From positions 1 through 54,513 of the forward strand of contig CAYLJU010000007.1 in assembly GCA_964384115.1 (NCBI GenBank): 54,513 nucleotides of DNA. The letters are read 5' to 3'. The notes beneath the pieces are model-generated. The model ran no database searches and was not told where the DNA came from. It worked only from the letters and a program-made list of their open reading frames with translations. Shown one piece after another: positions 18,868 to 29,272 of the stretch. The first letter of the stretch is position 1; the number at the start of each line of letters is the position of its first letter. The stretch is from an uncultured Muribaculaceae bacterium (lineage in GTDB: Bacteria; Bacillota_I; Bacilli_A; RF39; UBA660). Both the position numbers and the translations under genes were made by a program.

Positions 18868-19284
18868 TTATGCACTTGGTTTTTGACAAGTATATCTACC
18901 ATTTGAAGCTTTACATATATATGTATTTACATTTAAATCTCCCCAAGTAACAGTACCATCTTGTGCGATTGTAATTGTACCTTCTTGTGGATAAGTATTT
19001 TTGTAATCAAATGTAGACAATGTATCACCTTCAACAGTAGGCGTTACTATAGCTTTAGTTCCATCAAATGTAATACTTGCACCACCAAAATTAGCATTTT
19101 TCATAACAGAAAGACTATAGAAATTATTTGTAGCCTCAACTATAGCATCACAAGTCCTTTCAGCAGCACTAATACGAGTAGTATTGATAATATTTGTTAC
19201 AATTGGCGTACCAATTAAAGCAATAATTGCAAGAATAACAATGATCGCAAGCAATTCAATTAAAGTAAAACCTTTCTTATTCAT
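18868..19284 (-). CDS. Type IV pilin / ComGC-like pseudopilin (prepilin-type N-terminal methylation domain)
   Basis: MNKKGFTLIELLAIIVILAIIALI is the classic G|FTLIE class III signal. There is a C-terminal Cys pair (CKASNGRYTC). Confidence 0.85.
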   Translation of the reverse strand: MNKKGFTLIELLAIIVILAIIALIGTPIVTNIINTTRISAAERTCDAIVEATNNFYSLSVMKNANFGGASITFDGTKAIVTPTVEGDTLSTFDYKNTYPQEGTITIAQDGTVTWGDLNVNTYICKASNGRYTCQKPSA

Positions 19285-19306
19285 TATTTACCTTCCTTCC
19301 TAAAAT

Positions 19307-19666
19307 TTATGAACACGAAATTTCTTCCGCATTACCTGAAATTGTACAAGTAAAATTATCAATCTTCATTTCACTTGTTATATTGCCACTTTTATCAATA
19401 GTAGCTTGTCCCTCTTTTATATCTGCATCTTCTATATTTAATTTATCAATATTTTCTTTTTTAGATAAATCTAATGTTTCAGCTTTATTATTAGCATAAT
19501 AGTAAGTTTTCAAACCTTGTTTAACCAAATTACACTTACTAACTGCTTCTTCCCTCTTTACTTCATCTAATTCTTTTGAAATAAGCGGAGCCGAAACAAA
19601 AGTCATAACGGAAACAATTATTGTAATTGAAATAAATTCAACTAACGTAAATCCTTTACTATTCAT
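19307..19666 (-). CDS. Type IV pilin-like protein
   Basis: MNSKGFTLVEFISITIIV prepilin signal and a C-terminal Cys pair (CTISGNAEEISC). Confidence 0.8.
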   Translation of the reverse strand: MNSKGFTLVEFISITIIVSVMTFVSAPLISKELDEVKREEAVSKCNLVKQGLKTYYYANNKAETLDLSKKENIDKLNIEDADIKEGQATIDKSGNITSEMKIDNFTCTISGNAEEISCS

Positions 19667-19740
19667 ACCCCACCTACCATCTTAATTTTATAATATTATT
19701 TAAACATAGTCAATAAAATTTTAAAAATATATACATTTTT

Positions 19741-20157
19741 TTACGCTCTAATATCTATTATGCGCAATTTACTAATTTCTATATCACCCTTAGTTACAGT
19801 ATAAACAAAAGTATATTTACCAGGTGTTAAACCTTTTAAATAAGAACCATATTCATTTTTATCAATTTCATAATCATCAATACTTATCTCAGAAATACTA
19901 CAGCCATCACAAATAACAATATCATTTTTTAAATTATAATTAATTCTCTCATCATAAGATAATATTTTATTAGATATAACCACTGTAGGCATACTAGAAG
20001 CTTCGTCATATATTGCCTTTTTGTGAGCATCAAAAATAGTCTTACGATATGAAAGCAAAGCAAGTAAACTAGCAACTAAAACTAAAAATAGTAAAAATAT
20101 AGAATAGATCATTGTTGATATAGCAAATCCTCTATTATTTAATTTCACCTTCATCAC
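19741..20157 (-). CDS. Minor pseudopilin-like protein (degenerate prepilin signal)
   Basis: NNRGFAISTMIYSIFLLFLVLV has the Gly-Phe cleavage context followed by a hydrophobic helix, but lacks Glu5, as many minor pilins do. Its start overlaps the pduL 3' end by 23 nt. Confidence 0.55.
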   Translation of the reverse strand: MMKVKLNNRGFAISTMIYSIFLLFLVLVASLLALLSYRKTIFDAHKKAIYDEASSMPTVVISNKILSYDERINYNLKNDIVICDGCSISEISIDDYEIDKNEYGSYLKGLTPGKYTFVYTVTKGDIEISKLRIIDIRA

Positions 20158-21150: not shown

Positions 21151-21690
21151 ATGGATTATTTAGTAATTATATCAGAAATTGTAGCTATAATATCAATACT
21201 ATTATTATGGATAATCATAACATACAATAATTATCAAAGTTTTATTATAAGAATAAATGAAGTTGAAACAAAAATAGATTCCATATTAAGAAAAAAATTT
21301 GATCTCGTATCCAAATGTATTGAAATAATAGAAACATATACAGGAAAAGAAGAATTTGAAGATATAGATAATCTAAAAAATGAAAAAATAAGTAATTTTG
21401 ATCTAGACCGCAAATTAACTGAAGCAATTATAAAATTTGAAAATTATAAAGATAAATATGAAGAACTAGAAAAAAATGAAGTATTTATAAAAACAAATAA
21501 TCAAATAAATGAAGCCAATACTGATTTAGAAGCATGTAAAAATTACTACAATGACATAGTAACTAACTATAATAAAAAAGTTAAAAAATTTCCTAGTGAT
21601 ATAATTGCAAAAATATCAAAATTCAAAGTAAGGCCATATTTTGATGGCAAAGATATGTTTGATGATAATGTAAAAGATTTTAAACTATAG
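21151..21690 (+). CDS. lemA: LemA family membrane protein
   Basis: N-terminal TM helix followed by the LemA-like helical domain (YN..Q...I..NEVETKIDSILRKKFDL ... YYNDIVTNYNKKVKKFPSDIIAK). The start is the ATG at 21151, after GGTGAT. Confidence 0.75.
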   Translation: MDYLVIISEIVAIISILLLWIIITYNNYQSFIIRINEVETKIDSILRKKFDLVSKCIEIIETYTGKEEFEDIDNLKNEKISNFDLDRKLTEAIIKFENYKDKYEELEKNEVFIKTNNQINEANTDLEACKNYYNDIVTNYNKKVKKFPSDIIAKISKFKVRPYFDGKDMFDDNVKDFKL

Positions 21691-21716
21691 ATAGAATTTT
21701 AATTTCTATCTTTTTA
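21689..21716 (+). terminator. Rho-independent terminator of lemA
   Basis: Stem AGATAGAA/TTCTATCT followed by TTTTTAT. Confidence 0.6.
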
Positions 21717-21718
21717 TA

Positions 21719-21754
21719 TAGAAAAAGATTGAAAACTAAAAATTTTCAATCTTT
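21719..21754 (-). terminator. Rho-independent terminator after divIC
   Basis: 12-bp stem AAAGATTGAAAA/TTTTCAATCTTT followed by TTTTTC on the minus strand. Confidence 0.6.
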
Positions 21755-21765
21755 TAAATTCGTAC

Positions 21766-22200
21766 CTAATTATTTTTAACAGTATTTAAGTATTTTTTAC
21801 TCATTTTATGCTTAACAAAAACAATTATTAAAATTAAAAAAGCGCCACCAACAATAATATATATATTTATATAATCTTCCTTATCTTCCTTAACTATCTC
21901 TTCATAATTATCATCATCAAACTTTAAAGCAAATTCACCATCTCTAGTATATAAATAATGTTCTCTAGCATACCTAGCAATATATTCCTTATCATTTAAC
22001 TTTAAAATATCTGTTTTTAATTTTTCTTCATTTTCTTTTAATTCCAATAAATTATTATTTAAATCTATTTCCATCGAAGACAAAGTTTTAATTTTTATAC
22101 CATATGAAATAGTAGTAATACAAAAATAAACAATAACAACAATTGAAACAATTCTTAAAATAAATTTTACAACTGATTTCTTTACCTTTCTCTTTTTCAT
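21766..22200 (-). CDS. divIC: Septum formation initiator (DivIC/FtsB family) with an extra C-terminal TM helix
   Basis: N-terminal TM helix, a coiled coil and DKEYIARYAREHYLYTRDGEFALKF. The yabP-yabQ-divIC synteny supports the call. Confidence 0.75.
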   Translation of the reverse strand: MKKRKVKKSVVKFILRIVSIVVIVYFCITTISYGIKIKTLSSMEIDLNNNLLELKENEEKLKTDILKLNDKEYIARYAREHYLYTRDGEFALKFDDDNYEEIVKEDKEDYINIYIIVGGAFLILIIVFVKHKMSKKYLNTVKNN

Positions 22201-22226
22201 ATGATCACCATATATATTATATACGA

Positions 22227-22511
22227 TTATTTCTTTTTTTTCAACAACACTTTACACACAGTATAACTAATATAATTCCCAACTAAAAACATTATTACTA
22301 AATTAATATTTAAAATACCATCATTAATAATCTTTAAAAAAAAGAAATAAAGAATTCCATTGAAAATACCAAAAAGAATAGAAGAAATAAATTTAATTAT
22401 TAATTTTTTATTATAAATAAGAGGCTTAATAAAATTTAAAATTACAAAAAATATAAAACCATAACAAAAAGAAAAAGTAATCATTTTTAATTGAATATTT
22501 AAAGGTATCAT
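22227..22511 (-). CDS. yabQ: Spore cortex biosynthesis protein YabQ
   Basis: A small polytopic membrane protein directly after yabP, with a 4-nt overlap. Confidence 0.7.
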   Translation of the reverse strand: MIPLNIQLKMITFSFCYGFIFFVILNFIKPLIYNKKLIIKFISSILFGIFNGILYFFFLKIINDGILNINLVIMFLVGNYISYTVCKVLLKKKK

Positions 22512-22795
22512 TTAAATAATTTACTAAAAACGCTTTCTTCTTTTTCTTTTTTATTAATAGTATCTTTATAACTAAAACTATTTACTTTTCCTTTAATAGA
22601 AACATTTCCCTGATAAGTATCTAACTTAATTATTTCCAAATCAGTACCTTTAATATTAATAAAACCCATATTAGTTTCAAGAAGAAACTCTTCATTATCA
22701 AAGTTTTCAATTTTTTTTACACCAGTAATAACAATATTTTTTCTCTCATTAATCGTTACACTATGTCCACTTATTGTATCTATTACTTTATCCAT
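22508..22795 (-). CDS. yabP: Sporulation protein YabP
   Basis: HSVTINERKNIVITGVKKIENFDNEEFLLETNMGFINIKGTDLEIIKLD matches the YabP family pattern. Confidence 0.85.
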   Translation of the reverse strand: MDKVIDTISGHSVTINERKNIVITGVKKIENFDNEEFLLETNMGFINIKGTDLEIIKLDTYQGNVSIKGKVNSFSYKDTINKKEKEESVFSKLFK

Positions 22796-22839
22796 AATAT
22801 CCTCCTAGATAATAATATGAATAAATAAAAAAAAAAGAC

Positions 22840-23472
22840 CTATAATTCTAGATCTTCTTGTTTAGTTCTTAATAAAGAATACATTACTTTCAAAGCAATT
22901 AATACTGCAAGTACAGAAACAAGTCCAATTGGTGATTGTACAAAAAGAATTGCACGTCCTAAATAAGGAATATGAAAAATTGTTTTACCAACAGCTTGCG
23001 ATTTTTTTATTGGAGCATCATTTGTATTATTAGCGTCTCCTCGCGTAACAAAAGTTGTATCCGATTCTTCAACAATCCTATGAGTTACTAAAACTCCACC
23101 ATCACGATATGTTAATATATCACCAACATTATAATCTGATTCTTCATGAATTACAATTACTTCACCTGTCATAATAGTAGGTTCCATACTTCCACTTAAA
23201 ACAATAAGAGCACTATAACCAGCTACCATAGGTACATCGACTTTAAGAATCATTTTAACTATAATTGCATACCAACAAGCAATAATTACAATAATTGTAA
23301 AAATTGAAACAATAACATCACGAACCTTTTGTAAGCCCGTTTTCTTAACTTTTTCCTTTTTCTTTTTATCTTCTTTAAATAATTCCTCTATCTTATCTTC
23401 TCTTTCAAAATTATCAATTACTGGTTCAATTTTCTGTGTTTTTGACAATCTACTTTTACCCATATTACTCAC
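22840..23472 (-). CDS. sipW: Signal peptidase I, SipW (ER/archaeal S26B) type
   Basis: TM helix followed by LSGSMEPT (catalytic Ser) and VTHRIV (catalytic His in place of Lys), which marks SipW-type enzymes. There is a C-terminal TM helix. It lies downstream of TasA-like genes. Confidence 0.85.
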   Translation of the reverse strand: MSNMGKSRLSKTQKIEPVIDNFEREDKIEELFKEDKKKKEKVKKTGLQKVRDVIVSIFTIIVIIACWYAIIVKMILKVDVPMVAGYSALIVLSGSMEPTIMTGEVIVIHEESDYNVGDILTYRDGGVLVTHRIVEESDTTFVTRGDANNTNDAPIKKSQAVGKTIFHIPYLGRAILFVQSPIGLVSVLAVLIALKVMYSLLRTKQEDLEL

Positions 23473-25528
23473 CCTTTGCTGTTACATTTATAGCAATTGT
23501 ATAAGTTGCTAAATCCAATTCTCCAATTGAAGTATCATTTGAACTATCTTTCCAAAACCATTCCAAAACATAATTATCAACTTTATTAGAATCCAAACTC
23601 ATCTCATTAAATTTAATATCAGATGCTTTTTTCCAACCTGTTATATACAAATTATTTCTTTTAATTCTATACAATAAATTAATATTATACAAATTACTTT
23701 CATCATAAGAAATATTATATTTTATAGTATTTTTAGTTGTATTTTTAACAGAAAAACTGTATTCACCATAAGATCTAGGCGCGATTATTTGAATCCTATC
23801 ATCTGTACTAATACAATTTTTTTCACAAACACCTTGATTATTATAGCAATTAATATCACAAATACCATCGCCATCTAAATCAATATTCTTCTCTGGCCAT
23901 CCATCGTCATCAATATCACAATTCATTTTACAAACACCAGAATTTGAAGTTTGATTCATAGGATTTTCATCAGGCTTATTATCGCCATTTTTATCGATAT
24001 TAAAGTGTGGCGTCAAATCATCATTATAATCTATATTAATATCTGGTTTACCATCACCATCAATATCACAATTAACATTACATTTTCCATCGCCATCAGT
24101 ATCGACATTTAAATCACTCTTACCATCACCATTTGTATCGCAATTTAATTTACACTTTCCATCTGGAGTAATACAATTATAATCACAAATATCATCATCA
24201 TTCCAATCAATATTTGTATTTGGCCATCCATCATTATCAGTATCGCAATTTAAATCACATTTACCATCATTGTCAATGTCTCGATCTTTAGTATTAGTAA
24301 TATTACCATAATTATCTTCAACATTAAAGTGTGGTGTTTTATCACCTTCATAATCAATATTAGTATCTGGCTTTCCATCACCATTTTTATCACAATTTAA
24401 ATTACATTTTCCATTATTATCAGTATCACAATTTAAATCACATTTACCATCATGATTAGTATCACAATTCAAATTACACTTACCATCACCATTAGTATCA
24501 CAATTTAAATCACATTTACCATCATCATCAGTATCACAATTTAAATCACAAAATCCGTCATTATTAGTATCACAATTTAATGTACATTTATCTCCCCTAG
24601 TGTAACAATTATATTCACACTTTGTATCATTATTAATATCAATATTTTTTTCTGGCCATCCATCACCATTAGTATCGCAATTCAAAAGGCAATAATCATT
24701 ATCCATTTGATTCATCAAATTTTCATCTGGAATACCATTATTATCATTATCAATATTAAAGTGTGGCGCTCTATCGCCTTCATAATCAATATTAGTATCT
24801 GGCTTTCCATCTTTATTAATATCACAATTTAAATCACAAATTCCATCATTATTTATATCAACACTAATATCTGGCCATCCATCACCATCTACATCACAAT
24901 TTTTAATACACTTACCATTTTCATCTACTTGATTAACATTATTGACATCACCAATTTGATCATTATTATTATCAACACTAAAATGTGGTTTTAAATCACC
25001 TTTCCAGTCAATATTATAATCTGGTATACCATCATCATTTATATCACAATTTATATCACAAATACCATCATTATTTAAATCAACGTTAATATTATAATAC
25101 AAATCAATATATTTTTGATTATTCTTAGCACTTTCAAATATTTTAATATTTTGACCAATTTCCCATTCATTACCATTACCTTCGATAACAAATAAGTTAT
25201 TATTTTTATTATTTTTATTCAAAAAATCGAACCAGTTATTCTTAAGGCCAACAAAAATCAAAGCAATTATACCACCAAATATTATTAAGCCAAAGAAAAT
25301 CCATAAAATAATTGGTTTCTTTTTTTTGTATATTGCTGTTACAACCAAATCTTTACTTACATTTGTAAAATCGACATCCCACTTCGAAAATTTATATCCA
25401 TCATGTTCCAAAGGTTCAGGTGCTTTAGCAGAGGATCCTTCATAAACAATCTCTTTTTTTATAATTTCATCAGTAACCTCATCTTTAAACACAACAGTAA
25501 ATTCTTTTAGTTCAACTATATCTTCCAT
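23465..25528 (-). CDS. Membrane-anchored Cys/Asp-rich calcium-binding-repeat protein with a C-terminal TasA-like domain
   Basis: Residues 1-70 resemble a Listeria-Bacteroides (Flg_new) repeat (EHDGYKFSKWDVDF...VVTAIYKKKK). A TM helix spans about residues 72-95. Residues ~148-575 are dozens of DxNxDGxxD/CDxNCD units. The last ~105 aa (IIAPRSYGEYSFSVKN...YVLEWFWKD) align with the two upstream TasA-like proteins. Confidence 0.7.
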   Translation of the reverse strand: MEDIVELKEFTVVFKDEVTDEIIKKEIVYEGSSAKAPEPLEHDGYKFSKWDVDFTNVSKDLVVTAIYKKKKPIILWIFFGLIIFGGIIALIFVGLKNNWFDFLNKNNKNNNLFVIEGNGNEWEIGQNIKIFESAKNNQKYIDLYYNINVDLNNDGICDINCDINDDGIPDYNIDWKGDLKPHFSVDNNNDQIGDVNNVNQVDENGKCIKNCDVDGDGWPDISVDINNDGICDLNCDINKDGKPDTNIDYEGDRAPHFNIDNDNNGIPDENLMNQMDNDYCLLNCDTNGDGWPEKNIDINNDTKCEYNCYTRGDKCTLNCDTNNDGFCDLNCDTDDDGKCDLNCDTNGDGKCNLNCDTNHDGKCDLNCDTDNNGKCNLNCDKNGDGKPDTNIDYEGDKTPHFNVEDNYGNITNTKDRDIDNDGKCDLNCDTDNDGWPNTNIDWNDDDICDYNCITPDGKCKLNCDTNGDGKSDLNVDTDGDGKCNVNCDIDGDGKPDINIDYNDDLTPHFNIDKNGDNKPDENPMNQTSNSGVCKMNCDIDDDGWPEKNIDLDGDGICDINCYNNQGVCEKNCISTDDRIQIIAPRSYGEYSFSVKNTTKNTIKYNISYDESNLYNINLLYRIKRNNLYITGWKKASDIKFNEMSLDSNKVDNYVLEWFWKDSSNDTSIGELDLATYTIAINVTAKGE
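24374..24586. repeat. Near-perfect 36-nt (12-aa) coding tandem repeats, NCDT(N/D)xDGKC(D/N)L, about six copies
   Basis: The DNA unit GTATCACAATTTAAATCACATTTACCATCATC and close variants are visibly iterated. They encode residues 315-385 of the 687-aa protein. Confidence 0.8.
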
Positions 25529-25618
25529 AATATCACTCTCCTATACAAATTTAGTCCTCATTAAAAAGCACTTTTATAAGTACTCTTTAATGAGGATTAA
25601 ACCTCATTGACACACAAA

Positions 25619-26260
25619 TTAAGCAGTAGGTTTTACTTGTTTCAATGTTGCAGAGAAATCTAATTTGATTGTTTTGCCAGCAATTAAATTATCTACATTT
25701 ACAGTAGCGCCATCTTTTTCAGTTGTTTGATCTGAACTAATCCATTTCCAATAAACAGTAACTTCATATGTACCTACTGCATCAACATTACCAGTTAAAT
25801 CAGCCAAAGCCAAATCACTATTAGCGCTAGTTTCTAAAATGTTAATTTCATTTGCATAACCTGCATCTTTATAAAATCTAATTTGATTTTGAGTTTGATT
25901 TAAAGCAGTATAGGCAGCATCATTGTCACCAGTACCAACACGAGCTTTATATAAATCAATAGCTACAGTAGCAGGAACATCACTATTATTTTCAAGTTTA
26001 ATAGTAAAATTACCAGAATCACCAGGAGCTATATCATTACCTCCATTAATTGCAAGTGTTTTGTTAGCAACTGCTGTACCGTCAGTAAAAGTAGAATCAT
26101 CTCCAAATTTTACTTGCCATGAACTAATTATTCCTTTGTGACCAGTACTATCAACAGTAGAACTAAATCCAGCATATATAGCAGTTCCAACACCAGCTAA
26201 TGCTAAAATAGCGCAAACAACTGCTAAAACTTTCATTTGGTTTTTTTTCATATTTTTCAT
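25619..26260 (-). CDS. TasA/camelysin/BsaA-like SipW-dependent secreted fibre subunit
   Basis: Long signal peptide ending in GTAIYAGFSSTVDS (SipW-cognate type), then the DIAPGDSGNFTIKLENNS motif (PGD..F.v.N) and the C-terminal VTVYWKW motif shared with its neighbours. Confidence 0.65.
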   Translation of the reverse strand: MKNMKKNQMKVLAVVCAILALAGVGTAIYAGFSSTVDSTGHKGIISSWQVKFGDDSTFTDGTAVANKTLAINGGNDIAPGDSGNFTIKLENNSDVPATVAIDLYKARVGTGDNDAAYTALNQTQNQIRFYKDAGYANEINILETSANSDLALADLTGNVDAVGTYEVTVYWKWISSDQTTEKDGATVNVDNLIAGKTIKLDFSATLKQVKPTA

Positions 26261-26344
26261 TTTTCTTTTTCCTTCCTATTATTTAACATTTAAATATTTA
26301 AATATATGTAAAGATTTAATAGTGTCCTTTTAAATCTTAACACC

Positions 26345-26872
26345 TTAAGCGATTTGAGAACCAACGACAACTATATCAAATGATAAAATTGAATCTTGAT
26401 AAATATTATCATTACCATCACCATTATAATCCCATTTCCAATAGATTGTAACAACCTTGACCATATTATCTCCAAACTTAATTACATCACTAATAGTCTC
26501 TTTATCTAATTCAATTTTTTTCGTATAATTACTATCTAGATAAAAATTCAAATTGTCAGGTTTTCCTTTCAGATTTTTGAATGTTATCTTATAATTAACA
26601 TCCGTATCAGTCCCAGTAGCATCCAATCTTATACCAAATGAGCCATATGACCCAGGCATAATTTTGCCGTCTTGAGTATTACTAGCGTTTGTCGCCAAAT
26701 TAATTGCAAATGTACTAGATGAGCCATTAACAGTAAAATTCCAATTTGCAATCGCACCCATCGACTTTCCCCTTGGACTAGACTTATAGAGTGAGTAAGA
26801 AGCACCAGCTATTCCAAATAAGCAAAGTAACATACCAAGTAAAATAAATAGAATTATATTTTTTTCTTTCAT
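26345..26872 (-). CDS. TasA/camelysin/BsaA-like SipW-dependent secreted fibre subunit (paralogue)
   Basis: Signal peptide ...GIAGASYSLYKSS, then KIMPGSYGSFGIRLDATG and TIYWKWDYNGDG. The start is the ATG at 26872, after GAGAGGAG. Confidence 0.65.
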   Translation of the reverse strand: MKEKNIILFILLGMLLCLFGIAGASYSLYKSSPRGKSMGAIANWNFTVNGSSSTFAINLATNASNTQDGKIMPGSYGSFGIRLDATGTDTDVNYKITFKNLKGKPDNLNFYLDSNYTKKIELDKETISDVIKFGDNMVKVVTIYWKWDYNGDGNDNIYQDSILSFDIVVVGSQIA

Positions 26873-26902
26873 ATTCACTCCTCTCACTACCCTACTATAA
26901 TA

Positions 26903-26931
26903 ATTTTAAACTATATAACAAAATTTGTCAA
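26903..26931 (-). promoter_or_regulatory. Sigma-A type promoter of the TasA-like/SipW operon (TTGACA-17-TAAAAT)
   Basis: On the minus strand, TTGACA lies at 26926-26931, followed by a 17-nt spacer and TAAAAT at 26903-26908. Confidence 0.5.
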
Positions 26932-27070
26932 TTATTCTTTTCAAGTTTTACGTTTTTAGTTTTTCCATTTTTTTCATTTATATAATAAAATATAACAAAT
27001 ACTAAAAAACAATTTAATAATTTTTTATTAATAAAATTTTATATCACCATAAAACAAATCATTAAATTCT

Positions 27071-27099
27071 TTGCACCACCATAAGTTTTATGATATACT
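27071..27099 (+). promoter_or_regulatory. Sigma-A type promoter of the rnfC-like gene (TTGCAC-17-TATACT, TG-extended)
   Basis: TTGCAC at 27071-27076, a 17-nt spacer ending in TGA, and TATACT at 27094-27099. Confidence 0.5.
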
Positions 27100-27108
27100 A
27101 TTCATAGG

Positions 27109-28290
27109 ATGATGATTATGTATAACTATAAAAAAATGTCTTATGGACCATTAAACTTTTTTTTAAAACCTGAATATGTTTATATTCCACTAATAATTGC
27201 TGGTAGCGAAAATATAACTCTGCTAGTAAAAAAAGGTGACTATGTATATAAAGGAACAACTATAGCCCGTAAAAGAGATGAAAGTAAACTAAATATTTTT
27301 TCTAGTGTATCAGGAATAGTTGAAGATATAAGTACTCAAAAATATCATACTGGTCAAACTATAAAATGCATAAAAATTAAAAATGACTTTAAAGAATGCT
27401 ATGAGACAAAACGTAATGAAAATAAAGATTTTTCATTAAAAAAAGAAGAATTTATTGAAATTTTAAAAAAGCATTCAATAATTGAAAACAACAAAATAGT
27501 ATATAAATTATTTGAAGAAAACAAAAGATATAAAAATATTATTATCAATGCAAAAGAAAATGATCCATATATCACTTCGTCAAGCATTTTAATAAAAATG
27601 CATCCAGATGAAATACTAGATACACTAGATGCAATATTAAAAATAACAGGTTCTGAAGAATGCATAGTCTTATTAGATGAAAATGACACCCAAAGCATTA
27701 ATGCTCTATCAGATTATATAGGAACATATGATAGAATAAAAATTGAATTTAATTATAAAGAAGAAAATAATCTTACAATAAATGTAGCAACCATATACGC
27801 AATATATGAAGCAATAAGATATGACATTCCATTCATTCAAAAAGTAATTACCATAAGTGGTGATGGTTTTAAAAATCCTCAAAATATATTAATAAAAAAC
27901 GGAACAAATGCTCACGAATTAATCGAATCAATAGGAGGATATAAAAGATTTAATTATAAAAACATGTTTTTAGTATCAGGAGATGCTCTAAAAGGAAAAT
28001 CAATGCCAAACGATAATTTTATTATTGGTCTTGAATCTTCTGGTATCCTAGCAATAAAATCATTTGAAGATTTAGAAGAAAAACCATGTATAAGATGTGG
28101 AAAATGCATAAATATATGCCCCCAAGGATTAAATCCACTAATGATAATTCATTCAAACAATAAAAAATTAAATGTCCAAAAATGTAATGAATGTGGCCTA
28201 TGCTCCTATATATGTCCATCCCGAAGAAAAATTAGAGATAAAATTATAAAAGCAAAGGAGTACCAAAATGAAAGAATTCAAAGAATATAG
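27109..28290 (+). CDS. RnfC-like iron-sulfur protein (degenerate nucleotide-binding region)
   Basis: Has an RnfC_N-type barrel (LLVKKGDYVYKGTTIA...IFSSVSGIVEDI) and two 4Fe-4S ferredoxin motifs (CIRCGKCINICP, CNECGLCSYICP). The canonical GGAGFP glycine motif and ECEP are replaced (ENNKIVYKLF, ENDP). The start may be the ATG at 27118. Confidence 0.6.
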   Translation: MMIMYNYKKMSYGPLNFFLKPEYVYIPLIIAGSENITLLVKKGDYVYKGTTIARKRDESKLNIFSSVSGIVEDISTQKYHTGQTIKCIKIKNDFKECYETKRNENKDFSLKKEEFIEILKKHSIIENNKIVYKLFEENKRYKNIIINAKENDPYITSSSILIKMHPDEILDTLDAILKITGSEECIVLLDENDTQSINALSDYIGTYDRIKIEFNYKEENNLTINVATIYAIYEAIRYDIPFIQKVITISGDGFKNPQNILIKNGTNAHELIESIGGYKRFNYKNMFLVSGDALKGKSMPNDNFIIGLESSGILAIKSFEDLEEKPCIRCGKCINICPQGLNPLMIIHSNNKKLNVQKCNECGLCSYICPSRRKIRDKIIKAKEYQNERIQRI

Positions 28291-29272
28291 TGGACCTTTT
28301 ATACATAGTAAAGAAACCTACAAAAAAATAATGTTTAGCTATATCATTGTTTTTTTACCATTTGTAATATATGCATTATATGTTAATGGATTATTAAAAT
28401 ATAACGAAACAAAAGAAATAACAACTATTTTAAAACCATTAATATTTATATTATTACCAACAATAACCATTTTAATATTAGAAATAATATACAAACTAAT
28501 ATTTATAAAAAATAAATCATTAAAAGATCATATAAAACAAAATTTTTCAATATTTGGAATACTATATTTTCCACTCTTACTAAACATTGAAACCCCAATA
28601 TATATAATATTAATATCAACCATATTAGGATATATACTATATAAATTATTATTTAAAAAATGGTATAGTTTAACAATATTATCATATGTATCATATCTTA
28701 TATTAACATTTATATTAAGCAAATTAAATATAACAACATTCATTGAAATATTAAATATAAAAAATATAAACTACAATTATTTAGTAATAAGTAACGGCGG
28801 CTATATTAACCTTTTATTGAAAGGATCAGCACTAATGTGTCCCCTACTATCAATTTTATCATTCATCTATTTATGCATAAAAAAAGATATAAAATACCAA
28901 ATAACAATAAGTGCATTCATAACAATATTATTATCAACATTAATAATAAGTATAATAAATAAAAGCCCATGGTTTCCATTTTATTTTATTTTAACAGGAG
29001 GAACATTATTTATAATAACCATACTAGCAAATGATTTTTATAGTCCCGCAACTAAAGGTGGTCAAATAATATATGGTGTATTTATAGGAATTACAATTGT
29101 AATGCTAAGATTTATATCAAGCTATAATATCGCACCATTTAGCATCTTTATAGCCCAAACATTTACCTTTACATTTGATTATATAAATGAATTCATAAAT
29201 AAAAAAATAATATACATAATACTATTAATAATAGTTTTAATAACATCATTAACAATAGGAATTATAATATAG
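28268..29272 (+). CDS. RnfD/NqrB-like polytopic membrane protein (degenerate)
   Basis: N-terminal SGPFIHSKE resembles the RnfD SSPH motif. The C-terminal LANDFYSPATKGGQIIYGVFIGITIVMLR resembles MATDPVTSP..G..IYG. I could not find the SGAT FMN-attachment motif. Confidence 0.55.
   Translation: MKEFKEYSGPFIHSKETYKKIMFSYIIVFLPFVIYALYVNGLLKYNETKEITTILKPLIFILLPTITILILEIIYKLIFIKNKSLKDHIKQNFSIFGILYFPLLLNIETPIYIILISTILGYILYKLLFKKWYSLTILSYVSYLILTFILSKLNITTFIEILNIKNINYNYLVISNGGYINLLLKGSALMCPLLSILSFIYLCIKKDIKYQITISAFITILLSTLIISIINKSPWFPFYFILTGGTLFIITILANDFYSPATKGGQIIYGVFIGITIVMLRFISSYNIAPFSIFIAQTFTFTFDYINEFINKKIIYIILLIIVLITSLTIGIII

Follow-up and report, generated by a model that had tools for sequence, protein, structure and literature searches.

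What does an operon build that couples a SipW-type signal peptidase to two small secreted proteins and a 687-residue membrane protein, and how might the product be held on the cell? We addressed this question for a four-gene locus at positions 22840-26931 (minus strand) of contig CAYLJU010000007.1. The window, that is, the whole stretch of DNA analysed, spans 54,513 nucleotides (nt) at ~25% G+C, and almost all of its genes lie on the minus strand. The biofilms of Gram-positive bacteria have their main protein scaffolds in SipW-dependent fibres (TasA, CalY and BsaA), which, to our knowledge, have so far been found in only a few cultured Bacillus and Clostridium species. We lean, by a modest degree, towards the view that the operon builds an extracellular protein fibre that depends on SipW and is anchored to the cell, with subunits from a hitherto undescribed family.

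An earlier note on this DNA, made from the letters alone, had described a promoter followed by four minus-strand genes, two for secreted proteins, one for a 687-residue protein and one for the peptidase. All of these are present, and the promoter is kept in seven orthologous loci. The four open reading frames (ORFs) lie at 26345-26887 (180 residues from GTG), 25619-26260 (213 residues), 23465-25528 (687 residues) and 22840-23472 (210 residues from GTG). The start of the first gene, encoding the protein that we call P1, was reassigned to the ATG at 26872 on the basis of orthologue starts and a ribosome-binding site (GAGAGGAG), and that of sipW was placed at the ATG at 23463, as in orthologous gene calls. 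The two secreted proteins of ~180-210 residues that the note listed thus stand as a paralogous secreted pair, with the length of P1 corrected to 175 residues. Labels beginning with L and P and followed by a longer number (for example, L005 and P0039) denote retrieved loci and family representatives, respectively. In the list below, scores refer to the hidden Markov model (HMM) of the family to which P1 and P2 belong.

26345-26872, minus strand: P1, small secreted subunit, 175 residues (ORF, orthologue starts, family HMM 202 bits)
25619-26260, minus strand: P2, secreted paralogue of P1, 213 residues (family HMM 111 bits)
23465-25528, minus strand: 687-residue protein
22840-23463, minus strand: SipW-type (endoplasmic reticulum (ER)/archaeal-type) signal peptidase I, 207 residues

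The signal peptidase is of the SipW type

The peptidase passes the archaeal/ER-type model TIGR02228 (97.7 bits, cut-off 51.85), falls below the cut-off of the bacterial-type model TIGR02227 (23.7 bits against 47) and is 34% identical to SipW of the Bacillus subtilis tapA-sipW-tasA locus (L136; E 3e-20). Residues S47, H87 and D106 of B. subtilis SipW occupy invariant alignment columns, which correspond to Ser95, His131 and Asp146 of the window enzyme (210-residue numbering). The motifs in which catalytic Ser (SGSMEP) and His (THRIV) residues had been read are both present and align with B. subtilis SipW. Because TIGR02228 is passed, TIGR02227 is failed and the SipW catalytic residues are aligned, the sequence identifies the enzyme as SipW-type, and the two model scores exclude a housekeeping SipS-type enzyme, a possibility that the earlier note had itself raised. 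The equivalog model for Bacillus SipW, NF046067, gives the window peptidase 80.3 bits, under its cut-off of 190. Such a score is expected in a distant organism, as Bacillus orthologues are what the model was made for; the cut-off is likewise missed by distant SipW-type neighbours of the subunit family.

A large unnamed family includes P1 and P2

P1 and P2 are paralogous (BLASTP E 1e-9, 26% identity), and P2 lies next to P1 in all orthologous loci. Neither protein matches any model in Pfam or NCBIfam, including those for Peptidase_M73/TasA, BsaA (TIGR04090), TapA (TIGR04087) and the SipW-cognate signal peptide (TIGR04088). Comparison of PDB sequences with P1, P2 and the family profiles (phmmer and hmmsearch) returned noise only (AbpX, E 0.69; Epstein-Barr virus gp350, E 0.19). 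A word-indexed homologue search with P1 yielded 28 close relatives, none of them named. An exhaustive profile search returned 2,521 cluster representatives (50% identity) at E<=1e-3, 768 of them at E<=1e-10; the full extent of the family is visible only because this search was used instead of the word-indexed one. Where members are named by their source, the name is 'hypothetical protein'. The small proteins had been allowed to match some unrelated family; no curated family was matched, either by 10 representatives or then by 92 members, bar stray weak matches to four SipW-substrate models. We regard the system's parts as not described: there is no Pfam or NCBIfam model for the subunit family, for the anchor subfamily introduced below or for its Asp/Cys-rich stalk, and no mention of them in the literature searched.

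Most representatives have 190-200 residues, and some reach 400 to 3,136 residues with the domain at the N terminus. The family N terminus is Lys-rich and continues into a hydrophobic segment that ends in GGT-Y-A and is followed by K-Y-x-S. Further hallmarks are, in order, A-x-W-x-F, K-I-A-P-G-T-x-G-S-F, P-x-N-L-K-F-Y, T-I-Y-W-x-W and a terminal T-G-T-Q, and an aromatic residue at mature position 2 is near-invariant. The signal-peptide strings that the earlier note quoted, and its TIYWKW, VTVYWKW and LEWFWK motifs, were all found in the translations, and the long SipW-style signal peptides that it assigned to the small proteins are borne out by an alignment in the TasA register. SipW is predicted to cleave P1 after S-Y-S27, leaving a mature protein of ~148 residues, and P2 after I-Y-A30; the register for P1 follows the TasA signal peptide as aligned by hhalign. 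Among the longest members, P0040, P0053, P0056, P0057 and P0077 (600 to 3,136 residues) consist of the family signal peptide and subunit domain followed by very long extensions, and P0039 carries Peptidase_M26_N and GLUG matches. Such proteins may be adhesin-bearing subunits.

SipW genes adjoin the family in metagenomes

The association of the family with SipW was measured in 120 metagenome loci that were selected with a degenerate DNA pattern for KIAPGTxG[ST]F, neighbours being ignored in the selection. An ORF matching the family HMM is present in 107 of these loci. A SipW-like gene occurs in 59 of the 107, at a median gap of 21 nt from the family ORF, and in 20 of the 33 loci that have 1.5 kb of flank on each side. 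All of the sampled SipW-like neighbours (6/6) pass TIGR02228 and fail the bacterial-type model. In viral contigs, the same pattern found nothing. Because SipW-like genes adjoin family ORFs across metagenome loci, this is a SipW-associated substrate family as judged from gene content and order, though some members sit away from sipW: at the locus of P0040 (L015), there is no SipW gene within 6 kb upstream or in the remaining ~3.7 kb of contig downstream.

The 687-residue protein ends in a subunit-like domain

The 687-residue protein was divided into four regions:

25325-25528, minus strand: residues 1-68, predicted cytoplasmic domain (PF09479, Flg_new; E 0.0036, 17.8 bits, cut-off 27)
25244-25315, minus strand: residues ~72-95, single membrane helix (PIILWIFFGLIIFGGIIALIFVGL), read from the translation and kept in orthologues
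23804-25138, minus strand: residues 131-575, stalk made of DxDxDG-type repeats of 12 residues, acidic and rich in Cys (36-nt period in the DNA)
23468-23791, minus strand: residues 580-687, C-terminal domain homologous to the P1/P2 core (HMM and hhalign)

The C-terminal domain links this protein to the subunits. The family HMM matches residues 580-685 (domain E 3.7e-6, HMM columns 74-185), hhalign pairs the alignment of anchor orthologues with that of the family over 93 columns (probability 92.9%, E 3.8e-7), and an HMM of the anchor domain reciprocally matches P1 (E 1.5e-6). No other ORF in the window matches the subunit or the anchor HMM. A BLASTP comparison of the C terminus with the subunits was not significant, and a word-indexed search with it found three fragments only. 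The earlier note had all three proteins share a terminal region of ~100 residues that opens with an I(A/M)PG..GxF motif. Their homology holds, but the motif is not found in the 687-residue protein, which reads IAPRSYGEY at this strand. The anchor core domain begins at the IAPG strand, so that three features of the subunits are missing from it: signal peptide, N-terminal extension and A-x-W-x-F segment. With the N-terminal extension absent, the domain could accept a strand and not donate one.

An N-in/C-out topology is predicted because a KKKK run precedes the membrane helix; read by eye, the helix has no SipW-substrate motif of the YA/xY type (slash at the cleavage point). Residues 1-68 are conserved in orthologues. 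The Listeria-Bacteroides repeat (Flg_new) to which this region is weakly similar is normally extracellular, and the predicted cytoplasmic side of the helix is an odd location for it. The stalk is 21% Asp and 18% Asn, with 106 acidic and 33 basic residues, and holds all 36 Cys of the protein together with 20 D.[DN].[DN]G motifs. Orthologous stalks have 34-36 Cys and 18-20 motifs, and both length and Cys pattern are conserved. Taken by themselves, the 20 DxDxDG motifs suggest that the stalk probably binds calcium.

The architecture recurs. At 32 of the 107 metagenome loci, the anchor HMM gives an ORF a better score than the subunit HMM does, and most of these ORFs show a membrane helix upstream of the domain (by a simple hydrophobicity scan), a variable linker and the core domain at the C terminus. 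In nearly all cases the anchor-type ORF adjoins a small subunit gene, and it often overlaps a sipW gene. Most are of 210-290 residues; those of L025, L114, L120 and L054 have 475-590 residues and stalks of a quite different, Pro/Gly/Thr-rich composition. The usual order in the metagenome cassettes is sipW, subunit, anchor, sipW, and many related loci (L025, L114, L120, L083, L115 and L030) carry two copies of sipW, the first ahead of the subunit gene and the second behind the anchor gene. In such cassettes, weakly matching family-like ORFs lie 3' of the second sipW and may encode minor or tip subunits. The first sipW ORF of L025 (sipW1) has a long charged C-terminal extension.

Since this layout of helix, linker and core domain is met repeatedly next to genes for subunits and SipW, the 687-residue protein is, by its sequence, the long-stalk, Asp/Cys-rich form of a conserved third component. 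The earlier note had proposed a new type of anchor or nucleator and had suggested that the four-gene arrangement be sought in related genomes. The order is kept in relatives and the anchor idea gains from the metagenome loci; what does not survive is its novelty at this locus, since the component is widespread and has a precedent in TafF, the anchor proposed for archaeal Tafi loci (PMC12337348).

The position of the gene also admits a different role for its product. The 687-residue protein might be an assembly chaperone, nucleator or inhibitor that works beside SipW in the manner of TapA, binding cleaved subunits transiently or capping the fibre. TapA donates a strand to TasA. Here the gene lies directly 5' of sipW, many other loci have the two ORFs overlapping or abutting, and a domain that only accepts strands could likewise cap a fibre; TapA works on TasA through strand complementation (PMC10151520). 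The TapA model TIGR04087 does not match the 687-residue protein. A conserved wall-spanning stalk of ~450 residues, however, would be hard to explain in a chaperone that works at the membrane face, and whereas TapA complements TasA by a strand, the anchor domain has no adjoining free terminus to donate. Membrane anchoring has moreover been reported for BsaA oligomers and proposed for Tafi pili (PMC11580942, PMC12337348). We give the chaperone or cap a distinctly low probability and favour a role as anchor.

P1 and P2 fall outside the TasA and BsaA families

The earlier note had called P1 and P2 TasA/BsaA-like. The searches that it proposed, with models for Peptidase_M73/TasA, BsaA and the SipW-cognate signal peptide, gave no match for either protein, and the label does not hold: there is no PF12389 or TIGR04090 membership, and only the signal peptides align with TasA. 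PF12389 matches none of P1, P2 and the 687-residue protein at E<=0.1, nor any of 10 family representatives. Among 92 family members, TIGR04088 picks up only two, weakly, and TIGR04090 one (E 0.011). The BsaA-type N-E-K isopeptide triad has no counterpart, the invariant or near-invariant columns of the 92-sequence alignment being P, W, Q, G, F and M only. For profile-profile comparison, a TasA alignment was built from true homologues, all of which carry PF12389. When the full alignments were compared by hhalign, only the signal peptides paired (E 4.8e-5, probability 68%), in the register GGTYA/KY (family) against GGGTWA/AF (TasA); likewise, the family HMMs align with nothing in B. subtilis TasA and TapA beyond the signal peptide, and they give no match to TapA. 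Sub-optimal hhalign alignments pair KIAPGT..F with NLKPGD..F and F.I.VTGTQ with F.FEATQW, a resemblance of motifs only. B. subtilis TapA (L136:1620-2381) contains KSKWKWELHK, a W-x-W similar to the IYWKW of the family and statistically not significant. Membership of P1 and P2 in the TasA family was rejected on the absence of PF12389 and the failure of the mature domains to align by hhalign.

An AlphaFold2 (AF2) model of P1 from the 92-sequence alignment is a beta-sandwich with a predicted local distance difference test (pLDDT) score of 89.6 and a predicted template modelling (pTM) score of 0.71; it supersedes a first model from 15 sequences (pLDDT 72.8), which gave a less clear Foldseek list. 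Residues 21-40 of the model are of lower confidence, which fits a free extension, and confidence is also lower in the ~18 residues after the predicted cleavage site. The top six Foldseek matches in the PDB are all donor-strand-complemented: PapE (two chains), CsuA/B (TMt 0.60), AbpA (7ueg_A, fourth-best, E 4.4e-3), the TasA fibre (8aur_A) and the pilin domain of PapG. The match to the TasA fibre is weak (E 5.2e-3, probability 0.99, TM 0.41/0.33). A cannula-like tube subunit (9bab) ranks 18th (E 2e-2). At mature position 2, TasA has Phe in the alignment, and a preprint reports a conserved aromatic at position 2 of the AbpX donor strand (10.64898/2026.01.04.697558). P1 and P2 thus share a signal-peptide class with the TasA superfamily and, according to the model, probably a fold class; on current models they lie outside both the TasA and the BsaA family.

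P1 and P2 could instead be SipW-exported surface or matrix proteins that do not polymerize, in which the beta-sandwich is a binding module (for a glycan, or for a host or matrix ligand) that comes in a free and a tethered form. Carbohydrate-binding modules (CBMs), integrin thigh and calf domains and adhesin repeats appear in the Foldseek list at similar E-values, and in many family members the domain stands N-terminal to very long adhesin-like extensions, as in P0039. Yet the six best structural matches are donor-strand pilins, the CBM matches have low Foldseek probabilities (0.1-0.6), the conserved, flexible N-terminal extension with its aromatic at position 2 parallels the donor strands of TasA and AbpX, and known fibre loci (PMC11580942, PMC12337348) show just such a combination of dedicated peptidase, paralogous small subunits and anchor. 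We judge a non-polymerizing module, the chief alternative, to be rather unlikely and continue with the fibre.

Proposed assembly of an anchored fibre

In the assembly that we propose, the sigma-A-type promoter would drive P1, P2, the 687-residue protein and sipW. P1 and P2 would be exported, and the dedicated ER-type peptidase would cut their long signal peptides after SYS27 and IYA30, which would free ~18 flexible residues, the second of them aromatic, as an N-terminal extension. The 687-residue protein would stay in the membrane as a type II protein, holding its core domain at the end of a stalk of ~450 acidic, Cys-rich and probably calcium-binding residues. This core domain, having no extension, would accept a strand and be unable to donate one. 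P1, the probable major subunit, would dock its N-terminal strand into the anchor domain, further subunits would add in the same way, and P2 would serve as a minor or alternative subunit. What the sequences themselves show is the gene content, the type of the peptidase, the paralogy of the three domains, the tie of the family to SipW and the recurring anchor architecture. For the cleavage sites, the donor-strand polymerization and the anchoring role, we argue from the precedents of TasA (PMC9674648), of BsaA (PMC11580942) and of Tafi and AbpX pili (PMC12337348; 10.64898/2026.01.04.697558); the calcium binding is deduced from the stalk motifs.

Several results weigh against this assembly. The mature domains have no detectable sequence relation to any solved structure, and once the signal peptides are removed, their hhalign probability against the TasA profile is 1.6%. 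In the PDB, no Foldseek match reaches E<=1e-3 (the best are at about 2-5e-3), the TM-scores are 0.3-0.46 on query length, and generic beta-sandwiches (integrin domains, p53 and CBMs) share the list. The stalk matches no Pfam model (TSP_3, dockerin and EF-hand included, at E<=0.1) and no PDB sequence. The upstream W-containing segment of other anchors is not evident in that of the window. Of the family loci with adequate flanks, approximately 40% lack a neighbouring SipW gene, and a domain found at the N terminus of proteins of 400 to 3,136 residues may also act as a non-polymerizing module.

A broader proposal is that P1 and P2 define a widespread and so far unrecognized class of SipW-dependent donor-strand pili in gut Firmicutes (CAG-884-like Bacilli, Lachnospiraceae and other Clostridia), rooted by a type II membrane protein with an accept-only C-terminal pilin domain, which in this lineage would be presented on a wall-spanning, calcium- and cysteine-rich stalk of ~450 residues. 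We hold this to be plausible, if somewhat short of probable.

Transcription and genomic context

The operon is framed by elements that bear on when it might be expressed:

26932-26972, minus strand: conserved block of ~40 nt, AAACTAAAAACGTAAAACTT..AAAAGAATAA, immediately 5' of the -35 hexamer (many invariant columns in seven loci)
26903-26931, minus strand: sigma-70/sigma-A-type promoter, TTGACA-17-TAAAAT (top promoter-like match in 21500-27300, 11/12)
22827-22859, minus strand: terminator-like hairpin and run of 10 U, overlapping the sipW stop codon (11-bp stem, free energy -10.4 kcal/mol, z -3.0)
21766-22795, minus strand: yabP (TIGR02892, 100 bits), yabQ (TIGR02893, 31.4 bits) and divIC (PF04977, 38.7 bits), neighbours 3' of the operon

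TTGACA is invariant in seven orthologous loci (P1 64-83% identical), and the second hexamer is TAAAAT or TACAAT; a consensus scan finds 61 promoter-like sites against 49 expected for DNA of 25% G+C. The block 5' of the promoter is a possible binding site for a regulator, and farther 5' the intergenic DNA has diverged among the seven loci. The hairpin sequence is kept in five lineages, and in L008 a U.G to C-G change strengthens the stem. A consensus scan passed over it, its stem having fewer than three G-C pairs. The score of yabQ is slightly under the cut-off of TIGR02893 (32).

The sigma-A-like promoter and the terminator-like hairpin argue for a separate transcription unit, and the operon is probably such a unit, vegetative and with possible read-through. 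The genes yabP, yabQ and divIC are probably not part of the fibre system. The earlier note had the operon reading directly into them: they do adjoin it on the same strand, but with the terminator-like hairpin between sipW and yabP this is adjacency and no evidence of co-transcription. A sigma-E/sigma-K -10 element in the conserved CATATTAT 5' of yabP was considered and rejected, as it leaves no room for a leader before the ribosome-binding site.

This setting also bears on a sporulation-linked reading, in which the genes would encode a spore-surface fibre or appendage, or a coat-associated set, co-expressed with yabP-yabQ. Sporulation genes are nearby (yabP, yabQ, gerQ, yabG, spoVG and a SpoVD-like penicillin-binding protein), the P1 and P2 homologues of a more distant relative (L005) lie directly 3' of spoVG, and some sources label TasA homologues 'spore coat-associated protein N'. 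The yab/spoVG neighbourhood is a conserved Firmicute block, as on the B. subtilis map, so adjacency tells little; for the spore surface, which the earlier note had offered beside the vegetative cell, nothing but the neighbouring genes speaks. Given that the conserved promoter is of a near-consensus sigma-A type, that a conserved terminator-like hairpin separates sipW from yabP and that the same cassette occupies other genomic contexts in other lineages, we consider a spore structure very unlikely and retain the cell-anchored, probably vegetative fibre.

The nearest genomes are those of Firmicutes bacterium CAG:884 and uncultured Bacilli metagenome-assembled genomes from the human gut. Contigs with a P1 of 64-83% identity keep the order P1-P2-anchor-sipW, flanked by an rnfC/rnfD-like pair on one side and by yabP-yabQ-divIC on the other; in L005 (P1 55% identical), P1 and P2 follow spoVG instead. 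The RnfC-like (393 residues, with ferredoxin-type Cys clusters) and RnfD-like (334 residues) genes, at 27109-29272 on the plus strand, are divergent from the operon; they are followed by a gene for AP endonuclease 2, the rest of an rnf cluster is not there, and the pair occurs in all orthologous loci. Approximately 2-4 kb downstream of the operon, three consecutive small minus-strand genes (18868-20157) encode N termini similar to those of type IV prepilins or pseudopilins (MNKKGFTLIELLA..., MNSKGFTLVEF... and ...NRGFAISTMIY...). A type IV pilin is needed in Clostridium perfringens for the Bsa accessory protein BsaC to be secreted (PMC11580942). Every 2-kb bin of the window (1-54513) has a negative GC skew and the genes at ~13-27 kb are mostly on the minus strand, which makes this probably the leading strand. 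An Rfam scan of the whole 54.5 kb gave no match.

Implications

Set against the few cultured species in which SipW-dependent fibres are known, the subunit family is much larger (~2,500 clusters at 50% identity), unnamed and found largely in gut and rumen metagenomes. If its members do form fibres, many uncultured commensals would carry a surface-filament system that is invisible to current annotation. The recurring anchor, with its helix, stalk and subunit-like domain, offers a concrete, testable answer to how Gram-positive bacteria might hold sortase-independent fibres on the cell. Annotation models can be made now for each of three things, namely the family, the anchor subfamily and their linkage to SipW.

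Comparison with known systems

The sipW-bsaA-bsaB-bsaC operon of C. perfringens (PMC7395162, PMC11580942) resembles the locus in combining, in one operon, a SipW peptidase, two paralogous small subunits and one large accessory protein. BsaA subunits have a beta-rich, Ig-like fold and donate an N-terminal segment, a likeness that is predicted for P1 and P2. By contrast, P1 and P2 fall outside TIGR04090 and their family has no invariant Lys, Asn or Glu for an N-E-K isopeptide lock; the large Bsa protein is a secreted von Willebrand A protein, whereas here it is a type II membrane protein with a subunit-like C-terminal domain; and the gene order differs, sipW being last here.

With tapA-sipW-tasA of B. 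subtilis (PMC9674648, PMC10151520) the locus shares a dedicated SipW with the same Ser, His and Asp, signal peptides that align in one register (GGT[WY]A and, as second mature residue, an aromatic) and an accessory protein for anchoring or nucleation, here a putative one, and the TasA fibre subunit is within the top five structural matches of P1. It differs in having neither PF12389 nor a profile-profile alignment of the mature domains, and in the size of the mature subunit (~148 residues for P1, 234 for TasA). TapA, a secreted protein cleaved by SipW, works through strand complementation (PMC10151520), whereas the 687-residue protein is membrane-embedded and looks accept-only.

The archaeal Tafi and bundling pili (TafE/TafF, AbpA and AbpX; PMC12337348, PMC9245690, 10.64898/2026.01.04.697558) likewise have loci that join a signal peptidase I to a major pilin, to minor pilins and to TafF, which is proposed to be the anchor. 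They assemble by donor-strand complementation, which for P1 and P2 is predicted by analogy, and AbpA (7ueg) is the fourth-best structural match of P1. TafF consists of one membrane helix and a pilin-like jelly-roll domain (PMC12337348); the 687-residue protein, with its helix at ~72-95 and its C-terminal domain homologous to P1 and P2, resembles it in architecture. The differences are that the hosts are archaea (though AbpX has bacterial homologues), that no sequence match was found (AbpX, at the E-value given above), that Tafi pilins use the Tat (twin-arginine translocation) pathway and that none of these systems has been described with a long Asp/Cys-rich repeat stalk.

Thrombospondin type 3 (TSP3) repeats are contiguous calcium-binding loops with disulfides. 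The stalk is similar to these and other DxDxDG repeats in that its 12-residue D-x-[DN]-x-[DN]-G loops stand in tandem and its Cys pairs follow at regular intervals, and differs in lying outside the Pfam models and PDB sequences compared above. In kind, the system is one already known, a SipW-dependent fibre with an accessory anchor; its subunit family, its anchor subfamily and its Asp/Cys-rich stalk have no description in Pfam, NCBIfam or the literature searched, which makes it a new form of that kind.

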